The position numbers and the translations under genes were made by a program. From Promethearchaeota archaeon (GTDB taxonomy: Archaea > Asgardarchaeota > Lokiarchaeia > Sigyniarchaeales > SOKP01), in NCBI GenBank assembly GCA_019058445.1, contig JAHPZA010000010.1, forward strand, positions 96,001-160,000: DNA of 64,000 nt, in the 5' to 3' direction. Shown here piece by piece: positions 18,419 to 28,673 of the stretch. Under the pieces are notes generated by a model, which saw only the letters and a list, made by a program, of their open reading frames with translations, did no database searches and was not told where the DNA came from. How positions within the stretch are numbered: the first letter of the stretch is position 1; each line of letters begins with the position of its first letter.

Positions 18419-19522
18419 TTATTTAGATTTCATTTTTTTATATTCCTTTTGCACAAATAAAGCCAGTTCTTTAGCTTCCTTATCTTTTTCAAAATGCTCT
18501 CGTATGGGTTCAAGAAATTGATTTAAATAGGTGATAACTGCAGGTTTTAAATCTGGAGGGTTTAATTTACCTTCAGCGTAATCTTTTTCGAGATCATCAA
18601 ATGATTTATATTCTACATTCCCTCCATATTTTTCAGGTCTTTCAACTTTAAATACATCCACTTTTTCAAATATGATATACTTACAGTATTCTAAAACAGG
18701 GTTTTCTGAAGTTTGTGTGGGAGGACAATAAGCTTTATTTATTTTACGTTTAATGTCTTTCAAAGAATCTAACATAAATATAGCATTATCGGGATCTGAC
18801 TTTGACATTTTAAGTTCTATAGTTCTATCGATTCCATTTAATTCGCTTGCAGGTGGTTTGGTCAACGCCATTAGCATATGATGGCTTATAGAAATTGGTT
18901 TAGGTCGGTTAAATATTTTTGCGACCTCCCTTGCTAACATATTAACTTTTCTTTGGTCTAATCCCAACTGACAAATATCTACATTCATATAAAAAATATC
19001 AGCACACTGCATTAATGGATAAAGAATTTGTGAAGCATATAATTTATCAGCTTCGCTTCGTCCCATAATTTGAGTACAACGTTGAATTCGACTTAATGTA
19101 CTATTAATGGAGATTTTTAAAACCATTTCCCAATATTTTGGATCTTTTACTAAATCAGAAGCATATTTAAATTCTACATTACTCAAGTCCATTCCACATA
19201 CTTTCCAAAGCTCTTTAAAGAAATCCCCAACTTTTTTTATTACATCTAAATTGCCTCCAAATTTTTGGTTTGCAGCGGCATGCCAATCAGCAATAAGGAA
19301 AATAAATTTAATCCCACATTGTGTAATTTTATTTACATTTATTGCTCTTAACAACCCTTGAGCAATGTGAATATTACCAGATGGTTCAAAACCATCATAA
19401 GCAATTATTTCCTTTCCATGATCTAATTTCCATTGTAACATTTCTGGTAATTCTTTCAAGTCAATAATCTCTTCTCCGACTTCTTGTAGTAAAGAGATTT
19501 TTTCATCTAAAGATAAGTTCAT
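18419..19522 (-). CDS. tyrS: tyrosine--tRNA ligase (archaeal/eukaryotic type)
   Basis: YDGFEPSG.IHIAQ, ADWHA, YPLMQCAD, GLDQRK, KMSKS. Confidence 0.95.
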   Translation of the reverse strand: MNLSLDEKISLLQEVGEEIIDLKELPEMLQWKLDHGKEIIAYDGFEPSGNIHIAQGLLRAINVNKITQCGIKFIFLIADWHAAANQKFGGNLDVIKKVGDFFKELWKVCGMDLSNVEFKYASDLVKDPKYWEMVLKISINSTLSRIQRCTQIMGRSEADKLYASQILYPLMQCADIFYMNVDICQLGLDQRKVNMLAREVAKIFNRPKPISISHHMLMALTKPPASELNGIDRTIELKMSKSDPDNAIFMLDSLKDIKRKINKAYCPPTQTSENPVLEYCKYIIFEKVDVFKVERPEKYGGNVEYKSFDDLEKDYAEGKLNPPDLKPAVITYLNQFLEPIREHFEKDKEAKELALFVQKEYKKMKSK

Positions 19523-23344: not shown

Positions 23345-24496
23345 TTACACGCCAATTCCAATTGTATTTCCAATTCCCGCAATAATGATTTTTGTGTTTT
23401 TTTCAGTTCGTTTTCTAATTGCCATTTTAATTTTCTCGACAATCAATGGAACAGATTGAGTAATAGGACGCTTCATAGTTGTAATTGCGTCTTCTAAAGA
23501 TTGTTTACATATTAGGGCATCAATAGGAATATTTTTTCCTGTAGAGGATTCTTCAATAAAAGATTTCTCGACACCAATACCACCGATAGCTGCTCCGACA
23601 CCAATTGCTATCGAACCGGTCTTATCACCTGAAAGTTTCAAACCAGCATCTATCATAATTATGCGTGAAATTGAATCAGGATTTTCCTCAATTAATTTTT
23701 TTATAGCTTTTCCAGGTTTTCCAACAGTTCCTCCGGGACCTTTCGCTCTGACAACATAAACAATTCTATCTTCAAAATTTACTTCTTGAACAATAGTATC
23801 TTTAGATATCTCTACAGCTTCAACTTCGCCATTATTAGATACATCTCTTACAAACTTACCAGCCACCATTGGACCAAGAGCATCACCTATTGGACTTCCC
23901 TCAGCAAATGCTTTAGTTGCGTAATAAAAAGATTTTGCCATTGCCATTATTAATGCCATCTGCATAGAAATTTGTAATAGTAGGATCATCGATTTACTTT
24001 TTTTACCTAGAATTAAATAATGTTTAATTAAACGATAAATGAAATCTACAGCCATAGATGCCTCCAATAAGTTTTCTAAGGACTGCCTTTTTGAGTCAAT
24101 AGCATGAGGCGCTAACATCGCTACTTCTTCACTAAATCTAAAATCTCTAACATCAATGATATGGTCTATCTTAGGAATTATGCCATAAGGATCAAGTGTC
24201 ACAGGTAAGATTGCTATAAATGTCATGAAATCTTCAAGTTTAATAGCAAGATCCTTATCGGTTTCTGTCTTCTCGGCAAATTTTTTAAATTCAGTAAGAA
24301 GTATTTCCTTGCACTCATCATCCCATTTTTTTAATTTCTCCAGTCCAGTTTGAATCTCTTTCGCAGCTTTCCAAGCTTGAATTCGTTGTCCATAAAACAT
24401 ACTAACAAAGATTAGCAAGAAAAATAATAAGTTAAGGATTAATGATAGCGGATCACTTGTTCTCTCCGCACCTAGTTGCAAAATAATGTTTAACAT
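23345..24496 (-). CDS. DUF1512 family membrane-anchored protein
   Basis: N-terminal TM; PVTLDPYGI, PIGDALGP, AKGPGGTVGKPG, IDAGLK, C-terminal GIGNTIGIG. Confidence 0.8.
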   Translation of the reverse strand: MLNIILQLGAERTSDPLSLILNLLFFLLIFVSMFYGQRIQAWKAAKEIQTGLEKLKKWDDECKEILLTEFKKFAEKTETDKDLAIKLEDFMTFIAILPVTLDPYGIIPKIDHIIDVRDFRFSEEVAMLAPHAIDSKRQSLENLLEASMAVDFIYRLIKHYLILGKKSKSMILLLQISMQMALIMAMAKSFYYATKAFAEGSPIGDALGPMVAGKFVRDVSNNGEVEAVEISKDTIVQEVNFEDRIVYVVRAKGPGGTVGKPGKAIKKLIEENPDSISRIIMIDAGLKLSGDKTGSIAIGVGAAIGGIGVEKSFIEESSTGKNIPIDALICKQSLEDAITTMKRPITQSVPLIVEKIKMAIRKRTEKNTKIIIAGIGNTIGIGV

Positions 24497-24630
24497 TTTT
24501 TTTTTCCAAAAATTAAGTATTTTAATTGATTTTTTATCTAAATTTGATAATAATAAAATTTATTTATTCTTTTCTATTATAAAGAATAGTACATTTAATT
24601 ATTAGAAAAAAAAAACTTTTCTGCTTTTCT

Positions 24631-25065
24631 ATGATTGATGAAGAAGACGATGATGAGGAGATTTTAAAGAAGGGAATTACATTAAAAAGCGCATTGAAAA
24701 ATCTTGTTGTGATTTTTTTCATTTTATTAGGCGCTATGTTTATATATTTTGGATATGGTCCTGATCAATGGTCAAACTTATTTATTGGATTTTTCCTTAT
24801 TTGTATTGGTACTACCATTATGCAAGTTCAAAAACATACGCCAGACCCGATAAGACAGACTTTAACCATCTTAGTGTGTGGATTATGTGGGCTAACTAAA
24901 GTCAGAAATTATGAACAAGGAGATTTTGTGTTTCAGATGATTGATACGTGTAATAAATGTAATAAACCAATGGAAATTAAACAGATTTATTCGGTAAAAT
25001 TGAAAAAGCCGACAGAATCAAAAAAAAAAGAAAATTTGAAACTAAAGCAAAATAGTAAAACTTAA
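24631..25065 (+). CDS. two-TM membrane protein with C-terminal zinc ribbon
   Basis: Two hydrophobic segments, then CGLC...R.YEQGDFVF...CNKC. Confidence 0.7.
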   Translation: MIDEEDDDEEILKKGITLKSALKNLVVIFFILLGAMFIYFGYGPDQWSNLFIGFFLICIGTTIMQVQKHTPDPIRQTLTILVCGLCGLTKVRNYEQGDFVFQMIDTCNKCNKPMEIKQIYSVKLKKPTESKKKENLKLKQNSKT

Positions 25066-25164
25066 ATGTTTCAAAATTGGCTTAAAAACGAATTTTCGTA
25101 AAATTTTTTAGTAATGCTTATTTTACCATATTAAAATCGTTATAATGCTTGAGTAGAAACAAAT

Positions 25165-25245
25165 ATGAATGTAGATTTCAATATTACTAGCTTCACAAAC
25201 AAGCATCAACACGATTTCAATTTCTTTATTCTGCCAAGAGAGTAG
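25165..25245 (+). CDS. putative Phe-rich leader peptide (MNVDFNITSFTNKHQHDFNFFILPRE) upstream of pheS
   Basis: ATG at 25165 to TAG at 25243-25245; 5 Phe in 26 codons (4 TTC, 1 TTT), with a F-N-F-F cluster near the end. Confidence 0.5.
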   Translation: MNVDFNITSFTNKHQHDFNFFILPRE

Positions 25246-25287
25246 TATATCAATTAGTATTCTCTTGGCTGCTGATATTTTTATTTT
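25233..25287 (+). terminator. hairpin plus U-rich tract, candidate attenuator/terminator
   Basis: GCCAAGAGAGTA (25233-25244) pairs with TATTCTCTTGGC (25258-25269): 12 bp with one G-U. Followed by TTTTTATTTT (25278-25287). Confidence 0.55.
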
Positions 25288-25445
25288 GCAATATTCAATT
25301 ATTTAAAATTTCACTAATAAAAATAAAGATCTTCTATTTAATTTAAGATAGGGCAATTTCAAGCAATATAATTGCCAAAAAATTTAAATACATTAAATAT
25401 TTAGAAAAACTATAACGAAGAGAATAATAAATAGGATTTTATATC

Positions 25446-26981
25446 ATGGTTATTAAGCTTAAAAAGAAAGTTATTGAAATTTTTAATGTTCTTAAAGAAA
25501 AGAATGCTGATTATGAAGCTTCAGAGCTCACAAAAGAATTGAGTATTGATTATATAGTTCTAATGTCAGCTATAAATGATTTAATAGATGTAAATTTGGG
25601 TAAGTTTGAAGAAGATGAAATATTTCAATTATCTTTAAATGAGGAAGGCATTTCATACTTAAAAAATGGGCTTCCAGAGCGTCAATTACTGAATATTTTC
25701 CTTAAACGTAATATTAAAGAAATTGAAATAGAAGAATTATTAAAAACTTCTAACCTTGAGAGTAATATTTTTTATATTGGACTTTCTAATATGAAGAAAA
25801 ATAGATGGATTGCTCAAAGTAAAGCAACAGGGGAAACCAAAATATTCCTTGTAGCAGAAAAGTTTCCTGAAACGGAACTTGAGAAGTTTCTAAAACGATT
25901 TGAAAAAAAAGAAAGAATTAACTATTCAAATTTAACTAAGAAAGAGATAAACCAATACAATATATTGAATAAAAGAAAGTTAATTACAAAAACAAAAGGA
26001 ACACAGAGAATTATTTCCTTAACTGAGAAAGGAAAAGCAATAAAACCATCTGAAATTGAAGAATTAAAGCAGGTAAGTAAAATCACTTCAGAAATGCTAA
26101 GTTCAGGAACTTGGAAAGATTATCAATTAAAACCATTTGATGTAACTAAACCTGGACCATTACTAAAAGCCGGAAAATTACATCCTATGGTTAAATTAAT
26201 CAATGAAATTAGAGAAATATTTATTTCTTTAGGCTTTACTGAAATCAGAGGTCCAATTGTCGAAAGTGCCTTTTTTAATTTCGATGCATTATTTCAACCC
26301 CAAGACCACCCTGCCAGAGAAATGCATGACACATTCTATTTAAATAATCCCAAAACAGCAAAATTACCAGAAAAGGATAGAGTGAAAGCTGTTAAAGAAA
26401 CCCATGAAAATGGAGGAGATTCTGGCTCTTTAGGATGGGGATATTCATGGGATGAAAAAATCGCCAAGAAAACTCTCTTACGAACTCATACAACCGCTAC
26501 TACTATAAGAAGACTAGCTCAATATTATAGAAATAATGACGTGCCACCAATTAAAGTATTTTCAATAGATCGAGTATTTAGGAATGAAAAACTTGATAAA
26601 TCTCATTTAGCAGAATTTACTCAAATAGAAGGAATAGTTATTGGAGAGAGAGTTACACTATGTGATTTAATCGGTGTAATTAAAGAGTTCTATAATAAAA
26701 TCGGATTTGAAAAAGTAATTACTAGACCAGGATTTTTCCCGTATACAGAACCAAGTATGGAAATAGCCGTTTATTACGACAAATTAGGAGAATGGCTAGA
26801 AATGGGAGGGTCGGGTATTTTTAGACCAGAAGTAACCTATCCTTGGGGAATAAAAAATCCTACTCGAGTACTGGCGTGGGGTTTAGGGCTTGAACGATTA
26901 GCGATGTTAAAATATGAGCGTAAAGATATTCGTGATTTGTATATTAATCCAATTAAATGGTTAAGGCAAGAATCATACTAA
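25446..26981 (+). CDS. pheS: phenylalanine--tRNA ligase alpha subunit (archaeal/eukaryotic type)
   Basis: GLPER, FNFDALFQPQDHPAREMHDTF, LRTHTT, VFRNE, FPYTEPS, WGLGLERL. Confidence 0.97.
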   Translation: MVIKLKKKVIEIFNVLKEKNADYEASELTKELSIDYIVLMSAINDLIDVNLGKFEEDEIFQLSLNEEGISYLKNGLPERQLLNIFLKRNIKEIEIEELLKTSNLESNIFYIGLSNMKKNRWIAQSKATGETKIFLVAEKFPETELEKFLKRFEKKERINYSNLTKKEINQYNILNKRKLITKTKGTQRIISLTEKGKAIKPSEIEELKQVSKITSEMLSSGTWKDYQLKPFDVTKPGPLLKAGKLHPMVKLINEIREIFISLGFTEIRGPIVESAFFNFDALFQPQDHPAREMHDTFYLNNPKTAKLPEKDRVKAVKETHENGGDSGSLGWGYSWDEKIAKKTLLRTHTTATTIRRLAQYYRNNDVPPIKVFSIDRVFRNEKLDKSHLAEFTQIEGIVIGERVTLCDLIGVIKEFYNKIGFEKVITRPGFFPYTEPSMEIAVYYDKLGEWLEMGGSGIFRPEVTYPWGIKNPTRVLAWGLGLERLAMLKYERKDIRDLYINPIKWLRQESY

Positions 26982-26993
26982 AAGGTGTAAAAA

Positions 26994-28673
26994 ATGCCAA
27001 CATTAGAATTAAAAATTGAAAGATTAGAAAGATTAATTGGACGTAAGTTAGATATAAATGAATTAGAATATGATTTACAGTGGATTAGTTTAGATTTAGA
27101 GGATGTGAATGAAGAGGAACAAAAGATTAAAGTGGAATATAATCCAAATAGACCAGATTTTTCTAGCCCTGAAGGAATTGCAAGAGCACTTAAAGGATAT
27201 TATGAAGTCGAATTAGGATTACCATCATATACCATTATTCCCGGAGATGTTGAGATGAATGTGGATCCCAGTGTTAATAAAGTTAGACCATATATAGTTT
27301 GTGGGGTAATTCGGGATATTGATCTTGATGAGGATGAAGTTGCTACTTTAATGAATATCCAAGAACAACTACATTGGGCTGTTGGGAGGGATAGAAAAAA
27401 AGTAGCTATTGGTGTACATGATTTAGATAAGATAAGCCCACCATATAGATATCTTGCAGTAAAGCCAGACTCAATCAGTTTTGTTCCACTGCATGGTGAC
27501 GGTTACCCTATGAATTTAGAAGAAATACTTCTTTTACATGAAAAAGGAATTGAATATGCCCATATCCTAGAAGGTAAAGAAGTATACCCTCTTCTATTAG
27601 ATAGCAATGATGAGGTTATCTCTTTTCCGCCGATTATTAATGGAATTCTTACAACTGTTACTGATGATACAAAAAATCTATTTTTAGATTTAACAGGTAC
27701 AGATTACAAAGCAATTAATCTAGCATTAAATATTTTATCTACTATGCTGGCAGATACAGGGGCTAAAATTGAAAGTGTAAAGGTGAATTATCAAGGAGAT
27801 ATGGGGCAAATCATTACACCTAATCTAGATCCTATAAAATGGGAAGTAAATACTGATTATATTAATGATTATGTTGGATTAAATTTATCAGATTCAGAAA
27901 TGATAAAATGTTTTAGAAAAGTTAGAATGGATGCAAAAAAATCAAAAAAAAAAGGATATTTAGATATTTGGATCCCTGCTTTTCGAGGCGATATAATACA
28001 CCCTGTAGATTTTACGGAAGAATGTGCTATTGGATATGGATATTTCAATTTACCTTTAACAATTAGAGAAGGATGTATTGGACAATATCATCCAATCGAA
28101 TCTTTTGCAAACAAAATAAGAACTATTATGATTGGGGCAGGATATCTCGAGGTCTTAAATTTTATGCTGACAAATACAGTAAAAAATTATGACTATATGA
28201 GAAAAAAATTTAAAAAGTCTGAGATTTTACAAATCGCAAATCCAGTATCAAAAGAATTTGACACTGCAAGAACAGCTTTATTACCTAAATTAATGGAAAC
28301 TCTACTTTTTAATAGATCAGAAGAAAAACCGATAAGAATTTTCGAAGTTGGTGATGTTATTCAATTAAGACCTAAAGAAGAAACCGGAGCAATAAGAGAA
28401 TTACATCTGTCAGCTGTATCATATTATGAAAACTCCGATTTTACTGAAATTAGATCAACTTTAGATTTTATTATGAGTTCACTTGGTTATTTAGAGAAAT
28501 TTGAAATTAAACCTGGAAAAAACACAACTTATATAGATGGCCGTTATGGAGAGATTTATATGAACGGTAAAAAAATTGGCGAAATTGGTGAGATTCATCC
28601 TGAAGTTCTATTAAATTTCAAATTAGAATTTCCTGTAGCCGCTCTAGAATTAAATTTAGGTTCTTTGATTTAA
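26994..28673 (+). CDS. pheT: phenylalanine--tRNA ligase beta subunit (archaeal type)
   Basis: NRPD, GRDRKKVAIGVHD, SFPPIIN, R.DIIH.VD..EE.AIGYG, IFEVG, GEIHP; 12 bp after pheS. Confidence 0.96.
   Translation: MPTLELKIERLERLIGRKLDINELEYDLQWISLDLEDVNEEEQKIKVEYNPNRPDFSSPEGIARALKGYYEVELGLPSYTIIPGDVEMNVDPSVNKVRPYIVCGVIRDIDLDEDEVATLMNIQEQLHWAVGRDRKKVAIGVHDLDKISPPYRYLAVKPDSISFVPLHGDGYPMNLEEILLLHEKGIEYAHILEGKEVYPLLLDSNDEVISFPPIINGILTTVTDDTKNLFLDLTGTDYKAINLALNILSTMLADTGAKIESVKVNYQGDMGQIITPNLDPIKWEVNTDYINDYVGLNLSDSEMIKCFRKVRMDAKKSKKKGYLDIWIPAFRGDIIHPVDFTEECAIGYGYFNLPLTIREGCIGQYHPIESFANKIRTIMIGAGYLEVLNFMLTNTVKNYDYMRKKFKKSEILQIANPVSKEFDTARTALLPKLMETLLFNRSEEKPIRIFEVGDVIQLRPKEETGAIRELHLSAVSYYENSDFTEIRSTLDFIMSSLGYLEKFEIKPGKNTTYIDGRYGEIYMNGKKIGEIGEIHPEVLLNFKLEFPVAALELNLGSLI

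Follow-up and report, generated by a model that had tools for sequence, protein, structure and literature searches.

The window, i.e., the whole stretch of 64,000 nt that was analyzed, comes from the genome of an Asgard archaeon (Promethearchaeota; 10 contigs, 4.6 Mb) and contains the genes for the two subunits of phenylalanyl-tRNA synthetase (PheRS). The initial annotation of this DNA described a small upstream open reading frame (uORF) approximately 200 nt before pheS, and this uORF, its five Phe codons, and the use of TTC in four of them were all found as described; Pfam matches confirm that the genes downstream are pheS and pheT. The public sequencing runs listed as containing this DNA are sediment DNA metagenomes, one of them probably its source, and no RNA run is among them. 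The Phe pair F20/F21 is likewise present, and only its coordinates, given as 25221-25226, had to be moved by one base to 25222-25227. The features of the region before pheS are a long-range stem (H0), a hairpin over the uORF stop codon (H1), a T-tract, a conserved motif (box D), and two promoter-like elements (P1 and P2), all of which are listed in Table 1.

Table 1 Positions of the features before and within the pheST operon, and of a Trp-rich uORF elsewhere in the same genome
Feature	Position	Strand	Remarks
P1-like element CGTAAAATTTTTTAG	25097-25111	+	possible BRE/TATA for the leader transcript; alternatively a T6 insulator/terminator that acts on transcription from upstream
H0, 5' strand	25134-25158 (25134-25140, 25145-25151, 25153-25154, 25156-25158)	+	just 5' of the uORF start codon
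Leader uORF	25165-25245	+	26 codons, MNVDFNITSFTNKHQHDFNFFILPRE and stop; Phe codons at 25177 (TTC), 25192 (TTC), 25216 (TTC), 25222 (TTC), and 25225 (TTT)
H0, 3' strand	25192-25217 (25192-25196, 25200-25206, 25211-25217)	+	within the uORF, ends at the last Phe cluster
H1 hairpin	25233-25269	+	12 bp; 5' arm = last four sense codons and uORF stop codon
Conserved 3' flank UGCUGA	25270-25275	+	family consensus CUGCGGA; GGCUCGG recognizable in GC-rich family f4
T5 and T4 tract	25278-25287 (T5 25278-25282, T4 25284-25287)	+	candidate archaeal termination signal; T5 enrichment 3' of H1
Box D, consensus TCTAATTCAAGATAGAGC	25334-25354	+	conserved; upstream of P2
P2, BRE-like CCAAAAAA and TATA box TTTAAATA	25375-25390	+	56-63 nt before the pheS ATG
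pheS (PheRS alpha subunit)	25446-26981	+	PF01409, E 1e-89
pheT (PheRS beta subunit)	26994-28673	+	PF17759, PF03484, PF18262
Trp-rich uORF MATVNNWAWRWQWPWRWR and stop	C6:1236705-1236761 (same genome, outside the window)	-	~165 nt before trpB2

Leader uORF and RNA structures

The excess of TTC in the uORF is unusual: TTC makes up 21% of the Phe codons genome-wide, and its use in four of five has a P of ~0.009. Across the family, the bias toward TTC is position-specific, with 38% TTC overall. The number of Phe codons is a different matter. Phe-rich small ORFs are common in a genome of 31% GC, where a density of four or more Phe in seven codons is reached by 60 of 2475 intergenic ORFs and the uORF has a maximum of three in seven, so that the Phe count in this single genome is near chance and not significant. 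The significance of the locus rests on the hairpin and on conservation across genomes, and not on the Phe count.

The initial annotation also placed the stop codon at the top of a 12-bp hairpin, followed by a U-rich tract, and both structures were recovered. In H1, positions 25233-25244 pair with 25258-25269 (one G-U pair, -20.4 kcal/mol, z -4.97), none of 200 shuffled sequences folded as stably, and the stop codon UAG (25243-25245) forms the top of the 5' arm. A T5 run within 25 nt 3' of H1 is found in 19 of 38 genomes, compared to 6% of control windows from the same intergenic regions. Throughout this genome, T5 runs concentrate in the first 30 nt behind stop codons. The 45 nt that precede such runs are no more stable in folding than shuffled sequence, and not one of 787 T5 terminators genome-wide has a hairpin that reaches -15 kcal/mol. 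The normal terminators of this genome thus look like plain U-tracts free of hairpins, which makes H1 an exceptional, special device.

A third structural claim, that the F-F codon region can form a competing 6-bp helix with the 5' arm of H1, did not hold up well. This helix is weak; locally, no alternative pairs better than a 7-bp hairpin (UUAUUCU with GGAAUAA) of -4.6 kcal/mol (z -1.3). Pairing of these strands is possible in 84% of cells of the family alignment, which 258 of 500 shuffles equaled, and no covariation was found for an alternative (antiterminator) pairing in this alignment relative to the 500 shuffles. Such a pairing would be unnecessary if the ribosome directly occludes the 5' arm of H1. 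An extension of the H1 stem, in which a 5' UCY pairs with a 3' GGA over a 3-nt bulge, was also considered and rejected by eye, since the covariation was inconsistent.

H0, a stem absent from the initial annotation, is formed by the leader 5' of the start codon and codons in the middle of the uORF, and its loop holds the start codon and the variable N-terminal codons. The segment 25133-25220 folds at -15.2 kcal/mol (z -2.56) and the entire segment 25133-25275 at z -4.1. Among 34 genomes, the mean energy of the native H0 duplex was -14.1 kcal/mol, compared to -10.35 kcal/mol for cross-genome pairs and -8.8 kcal/mol for shuffled strands, and none of 5000 permutations equaled the native value. The stem is seen in the minimum-energy folds of nearly all relatives. 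H0 therefore pairs in a genome-specific manner and is conserved and covarying. By analogy to the 1:2 structure of bacterial leaders, it may time or limit ribosome loading, or may pause the polymerase.

Conservation of the leader among relatives

The comparison that the initial annotation called for, a search for a conserved Phe-rich uORF and a covarying hairpin before pheS in relatives, was carried out and found both. A recurrent stretch, TTCTTTAWTCYGCCAAGRGA, a variable loop, and TTCYCTTGGCTGCGGA, occurs before pheS in 17 genomes of the same family and was used to build a covariance model (R1). This model has one match in the genome under study (68 bits; next best 30 bits) and matches 101 of the 131 genomes of the family, essentially with one copy each. 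In 19 genomes of the order's three other families, the model had no match. R1 also missed the diverged version in family f4 (0 of 4), which was recognized by eye. At every retrieved locus that contains pheS, the uORF stop codon lies 135-228 nt before the pheS ATG on the same strand.

Homologous in-frame uORFs of 20-37 codons, starting with ATG or sometimes TTG, were found at 16 of 17 and at 27 of 29 loci of relatives. A canonical start codon is lacking in three of the relatives studied (L016, L022, and L045). Over the 26 codons before an invariant CCA codon, the uORF frame is free of stops in 33 of 35 distinct sequences, and the other two frames, which average 2.1 stops, are open in only 3 and 1. 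The stop occurs at a fixed codon in 34 of 39 sequences, as TAA (27), TAG (4), or TGA (3). The C-terminal half has the consensus QDSFFFxFFILPRE, directly followed by the stop, and the N-terminal half varies freely. Five fixed positions carry Phe in 26, 29, 35, 32, and 38 of the 39 sequences, and TTT and TTC interchange at two of them. Judged from these alignments, the uORF is kept open, is translated-looking, and is under selection on translation.

H1 is retained in all sequences and covaries. In the family alignment, 94.6% of the cells pair and five pairs show double changes, which none of 500 shuffles matched; in 51 distinct sequences, whose alignment was fitted to the covariance model, the proportion is 92.8%, and one pair occurs as GC (27), GU (11), or AU (10). 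The loop varies in sequence and ranges from approximately 13 to 30 nt in length. Almost no change is seen in the lower stem (GCCAAG/CUUGGC) and in the 3' flank (CUGCGGA).

In the GC-rich family f4, the uORF reads MTPRTTFFVSIVPFIFNGPGN and stop; the ORFs begin with ATG, have 21-22 codons, and end in PFIFNGPGN. The stop codon of these ORFs is part of a hairpin (CCCCGGGAA/UUCCCGGGG) in the corresponding position, ~200 nt before pheS. Family f2 has no element, and its upstream gene abuts pheS. A comparable element before pheS was also not found in 20 genomes from 16 other Asgard families. In two f4 genomes (L027 and L030), a leader motif, GCCATTCATC, is repeated ~130 nt further upstream, ~400 nt before pheS; this second copy may be a duplicated leader fragment.

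Putative promoters, neighboring genes, and a Trp-rich leader

The gene upstream of the leader (24631-25065, forward strand) encodes 144 aa; its product begins with an acidic region, carries two membrane helices by prediction, and ends in a Zn-ribbon (CxxC...CxxC). Neither Pfam nor NCBIfam contains a match. The protein is 59% identical to its counterpart in another genus, and its gene is syntenic with the cytidylyltransferase-pheS region. In other genera, a cytidylyltransferase gene stands between the Zn-ribbon gene and the leader, and in the genus under study this cytidylyltransferase-like gene is absent; in both cases, the leader remains with pheS. Read from this synteny, the ancestral order is the 144-aa Zn-ribbon membrane protein, the cytidylyltransferase-like gene, the leader, and pheS.

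The P1-like element also stayed with the leader when the upstream gene changed. It is nearly invariant in the family alignment and is located ~25-30 nt before the 5' strand of H0. In the genome under study, TTTTTTAG shows no promoter-like positional peak genome-wide, so that P1 has an unusual TATA box and its role as a promoter is deduced from spacing only.

P2 has a more typical appearance. Its TATA box is enriched 50-80 nt before start codons throughout the genome, the predicted start site lies near 25413-25416, and the element is conserved as CGAAAGATTTAAATA in all relatives, including the genomes that lost the spacer. Given this conservation, and because it stands as far from the ATG as is usual in this genome, P2 is very probably pheS's own, housekeeping promoter, which is predicted to act downstream of the leader element. 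Its retention even in genomes without the spacer suggests that pheS does not depend on read-through. The initial annotation had counted a pheS start site downstream of 25290, for example from an element near 25383, as evidence against an attenuator, and P2 gives this objection weight. Box D is missing in three genomes of the same genus, where P2 is kept. As an RNA structure box D was rejected, since RNAalifold yielded no consensus. In five genomes (L013, L016, L019, L021, and L039), its motif YCTAATTNAAGATAGRGC occurs twice as a direct repeat ~33 nt apart, a duplication that points to a DNA site; box D is probably bound by a transcription factor.

When all small ORFs between genes were scanned, a second cognate case emerged, an 18-codon uORF that has five Trp codons although the genome is AT-rich. 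The gene that follows encodes a TrpB-like PLP enzyme of 466 aa (trpB2; NF009057, 638 bits). A stem encloses the whole uORF, a 7-bp hairpin lies over its stop codon, and a T-rich tract follows. Leaders with W-x-W-x-W were found 139-186 nt before the trpB2 orthologue at 14 of 29 relatives' loci, and a TATA-like AACTTTTTAAA is conserved ~55 nt before the Trp uORF in relatives. This leader is a candidate Trp-sensing leader. The occurrence of Phe codons with pheST and of Trp codons with trpB2, each the cognate pairing, is a strong argument that amino acids are sensed through translation.

No cognate-rich uORF turned up in a crude look before eleven more aminoacyl-tRNA synthetase genes of the genome, from both class I and class II. 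The window itself contains a synthetase gene on the reverse strand (18512-19414), which encodes a class Ib enzyme of 367 aa (PF00579, Tyr or Trp); a crude look found no cognate-rich uORF before it. Val-rich uORFs of the same genome were rejected as leaders and attributed to chance, as they precede the genes for PEP synthase and a GlcD-like protein.

Proposed mechanism, rival explanations, and known systems

The reading that we favor, with reasonable rather than high confidence, is that the pheST operon carries a translated leader which acts in cis and reports how much charged tRNA-Phe is available. A role of the uORF as a predicted Phe-tRNA-sensing leader peptide is well supported by its conservation. 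A short transcript would start ~30 nt before the uORF, a position suggested by the covarying H0, which begins at 25134, and by the P1-like element 25-30 nt further upstream. A ribosome would load on the uORF, open H0, and reach the Phe codon cluster, which has the family consensus FFFxFF and consists of F18, F20, and F21 in the window. When charged tRNA-Phe is plentiful, the ribosome would complete the uORF and leave, H1 would fold, and the polymerase would stop at the T-tract, ending the leader transcript by analogy with pheM. When tRNA-Phe is scarce, the ribosome would stall on the last Phe codons. Since the last of these lies only 8 nt before H1, a ribosome waiting on it would cover the lower part of the 5' arm and thereby keep H1 from folding. 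More polymerases would then continue through the P2 region into pheST, in addition to basal expression from P2.

We infer that P1 acts as a promoter, that the ribosome stalls, that the transcript ends at the T-tract, which way the response runs, and how the work is shared with P2. Geometry does not decide which way the response runs, as H1 would stay free if the ribosome stalled at the first Phe triplet. The initial annotation had proposed a Phe-tRNA attenuator that couples translation to U-tract termination; its sensor is supported by the conserved uORF and hairpin, and its translation-coupled termination stays conditional, because P2 would make read-through dispensable, half of the genomes have no T-run after H1, the alternative hairpin shows no covariation, and termination in archaea is known to depend on U-tracts and aCPSF1 and not on hairpins (PMC8716108, PMC7515710). 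A bolder reading, which we offer tentatively, is that Asgard archaea use true ribosome-mediated attenuation, in which the pioneering ribosome on cognate codons would decide whether the hairpin forms behind a polymerase at a U-tract, with one design that would serve two operons or more (pheST through Phe codons, trpB2 through Trp codons).

Could the uORF have arisen by chance, with the hairpin serving either as the upstream gene's terminator or as its inverted-repeat operator in the DNA? The frequency of Phe-rich small ORFs in an AT-rich genome and the T-run behind the hairpin would fit such a view, which is nevertheless hardly credible. It is already contradicted by the comparative data, in which frame, start, stop, and Phe positions are conserved. 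H1 begins 168 nt after the stop codon of the Zn-ribbon gene, and a function as the mere terminator of that gene was rejected because the element stays with pheS after the loss of the cytidylyltransferase gene and because the ordinary T-tract terminators of this genome lack hairpins. The variable length of the loop favors pairing in RNA, and a loop of 13-30 nt is unfit for a dimeric DNA operator. A protein- or tRNA-binding operator formed by H1 and its flank, through autoregulation by PheRS or a T-box-like contact and with the uORF in a secondary role, has somewhat more to recommend it and is still improbable. Synthetase autoregulation is exemplified by E. coli thrS, and the near invariance of the GCCAAG/CUUGGC stem and the CUGCGGA flank goes beyond the needs of pairing. 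However, this invariance is also explained by the coding of Pro-Arg in the same nucleotides, family f4 retains the hairpin with a different sequence, and the variable H1 loop cannot mimic an anticodon. The open frame and the stop codon data show selection on translation, and no Rfam family matches the element.

The most serious rival, which we regard as unlikely, is a stand-alone small gene. Here, an RNA of ~140 nt with a small ORF would end at the T-tract and act as a trans-acting sRNA or encode a hydrophobic micro-protein, and pheS would be transcribed from P2 only; alternatively, its transcription would interfere with P2 and supply no read-through mRNA. P2 is conserved and sufficient in position, T-tracts are enriched 3' of H1, and H0 together with H1 would give a stable small RNA. 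In bacteria, attenuator products such as the rnTrpL RNA and the peTrpL peptide are known to act in trans (PMC7968998, PMC7298713). Against this, the element is single-copy per genome and strictly linked to pheS at a narrow distance, and the conserved part of the peptide consists essentially of the Phe cluster and residues dictated by the hairpin, with an N-terminus free to vary. The cognate pairings at pheST and trpB2 are what a cis sensor predicts.

Leader-peptide attenuation is a textbook bacterial mechanism that requires coupled transcription and translation. In E. coli, pheM, a 14-codon Phe-rich leader ORF, precedes pheS-pheT and is accompanied by a stable hairpin and a U-run. The archaeal leader shares with it the short Phe-rich ORF before pheS-pheT, the stable hairpin and U-run that follow, and the presumed signal, charged tRNA-Phe read by a translating ribosome. 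Unlike pheM, it occurs in an archaeon and has no homology to pheM in sequence or structure. Its uORF is longer, at 26-37 codons, and ends inside the 5' arm of the hairpin. The Asgard leader further differs in its long-range H0 around the start codon, its lack of a supported antiterminator, the conserved promoter between leader and pheS, and the archaeal termination machinery (U-tract and aCPSF1/FttA).

The leader of E. coli tnaC is another useful comparison, as its factor-dependent attenuation is governed by a ribosome at the leader stop codon. In both cases, a ribosome at the end of the leader ORF would decide whether a termination factor acts downstream; the analogy is plausible if aCPSF1/FttA, and not the hairpin, ends the archaeal transcript. 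However, the signal of tnaC is free tryptophan in the exit tunnel rather than codon hunger, and its factor, Rho, is unrelated to aCPSF1. The enterobacterial pheL-pheA leader (Rfam Phe_leader; PMC3082878) likewise uses runs of Phe codons to control a Phe-related gene, and the Asgard element differs from it in the downstream gene and in the fold. A cmscan search of positions 24000-27000 (E <=10) matched the element to no Rfam family, Phe_leader included, and gave only two chance snoRNA-like hits elsewhere. A tRNA scan of the window found none. As with Sinorhizobium trpL (rnTrpL sRNA and peTrpL peptide; PMC7968998, PMC7298713), a terminated leader of the Asgard type could persist as a functional small structured RNA, with the difference that the Sinorhizobium system is bacterial. 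Full-text literature searches yielded no published case of archaeal leader-peptide attenuation, only bacterial leader peptides. In its appearance, the Asgard pheST leader resembles amino-acid sensors that rely on the ribosome and have so far been known from bacteria alone.

As a well-defined, sequence-conserved candidate with a second cognate example (Trp/trpB2) in the same genome, this leader makes it possible to test whether archaeal ribosomes steer the polymerase and whether RNA hairpins influence archaeal termination. It also bears on how the levels of aminoacyl-tRNA synthetases are set in Asgard archaea, and it illustrates that the annotation of archaeal MAGs overlooks small regulatory ORFs.

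Two genomes of family f10 (L129 and L130) have in common a short uORF with HNFF(N/I)AS, located 25-120 nt before pheS, which may represent an independent Phe leader in another Asgard family.
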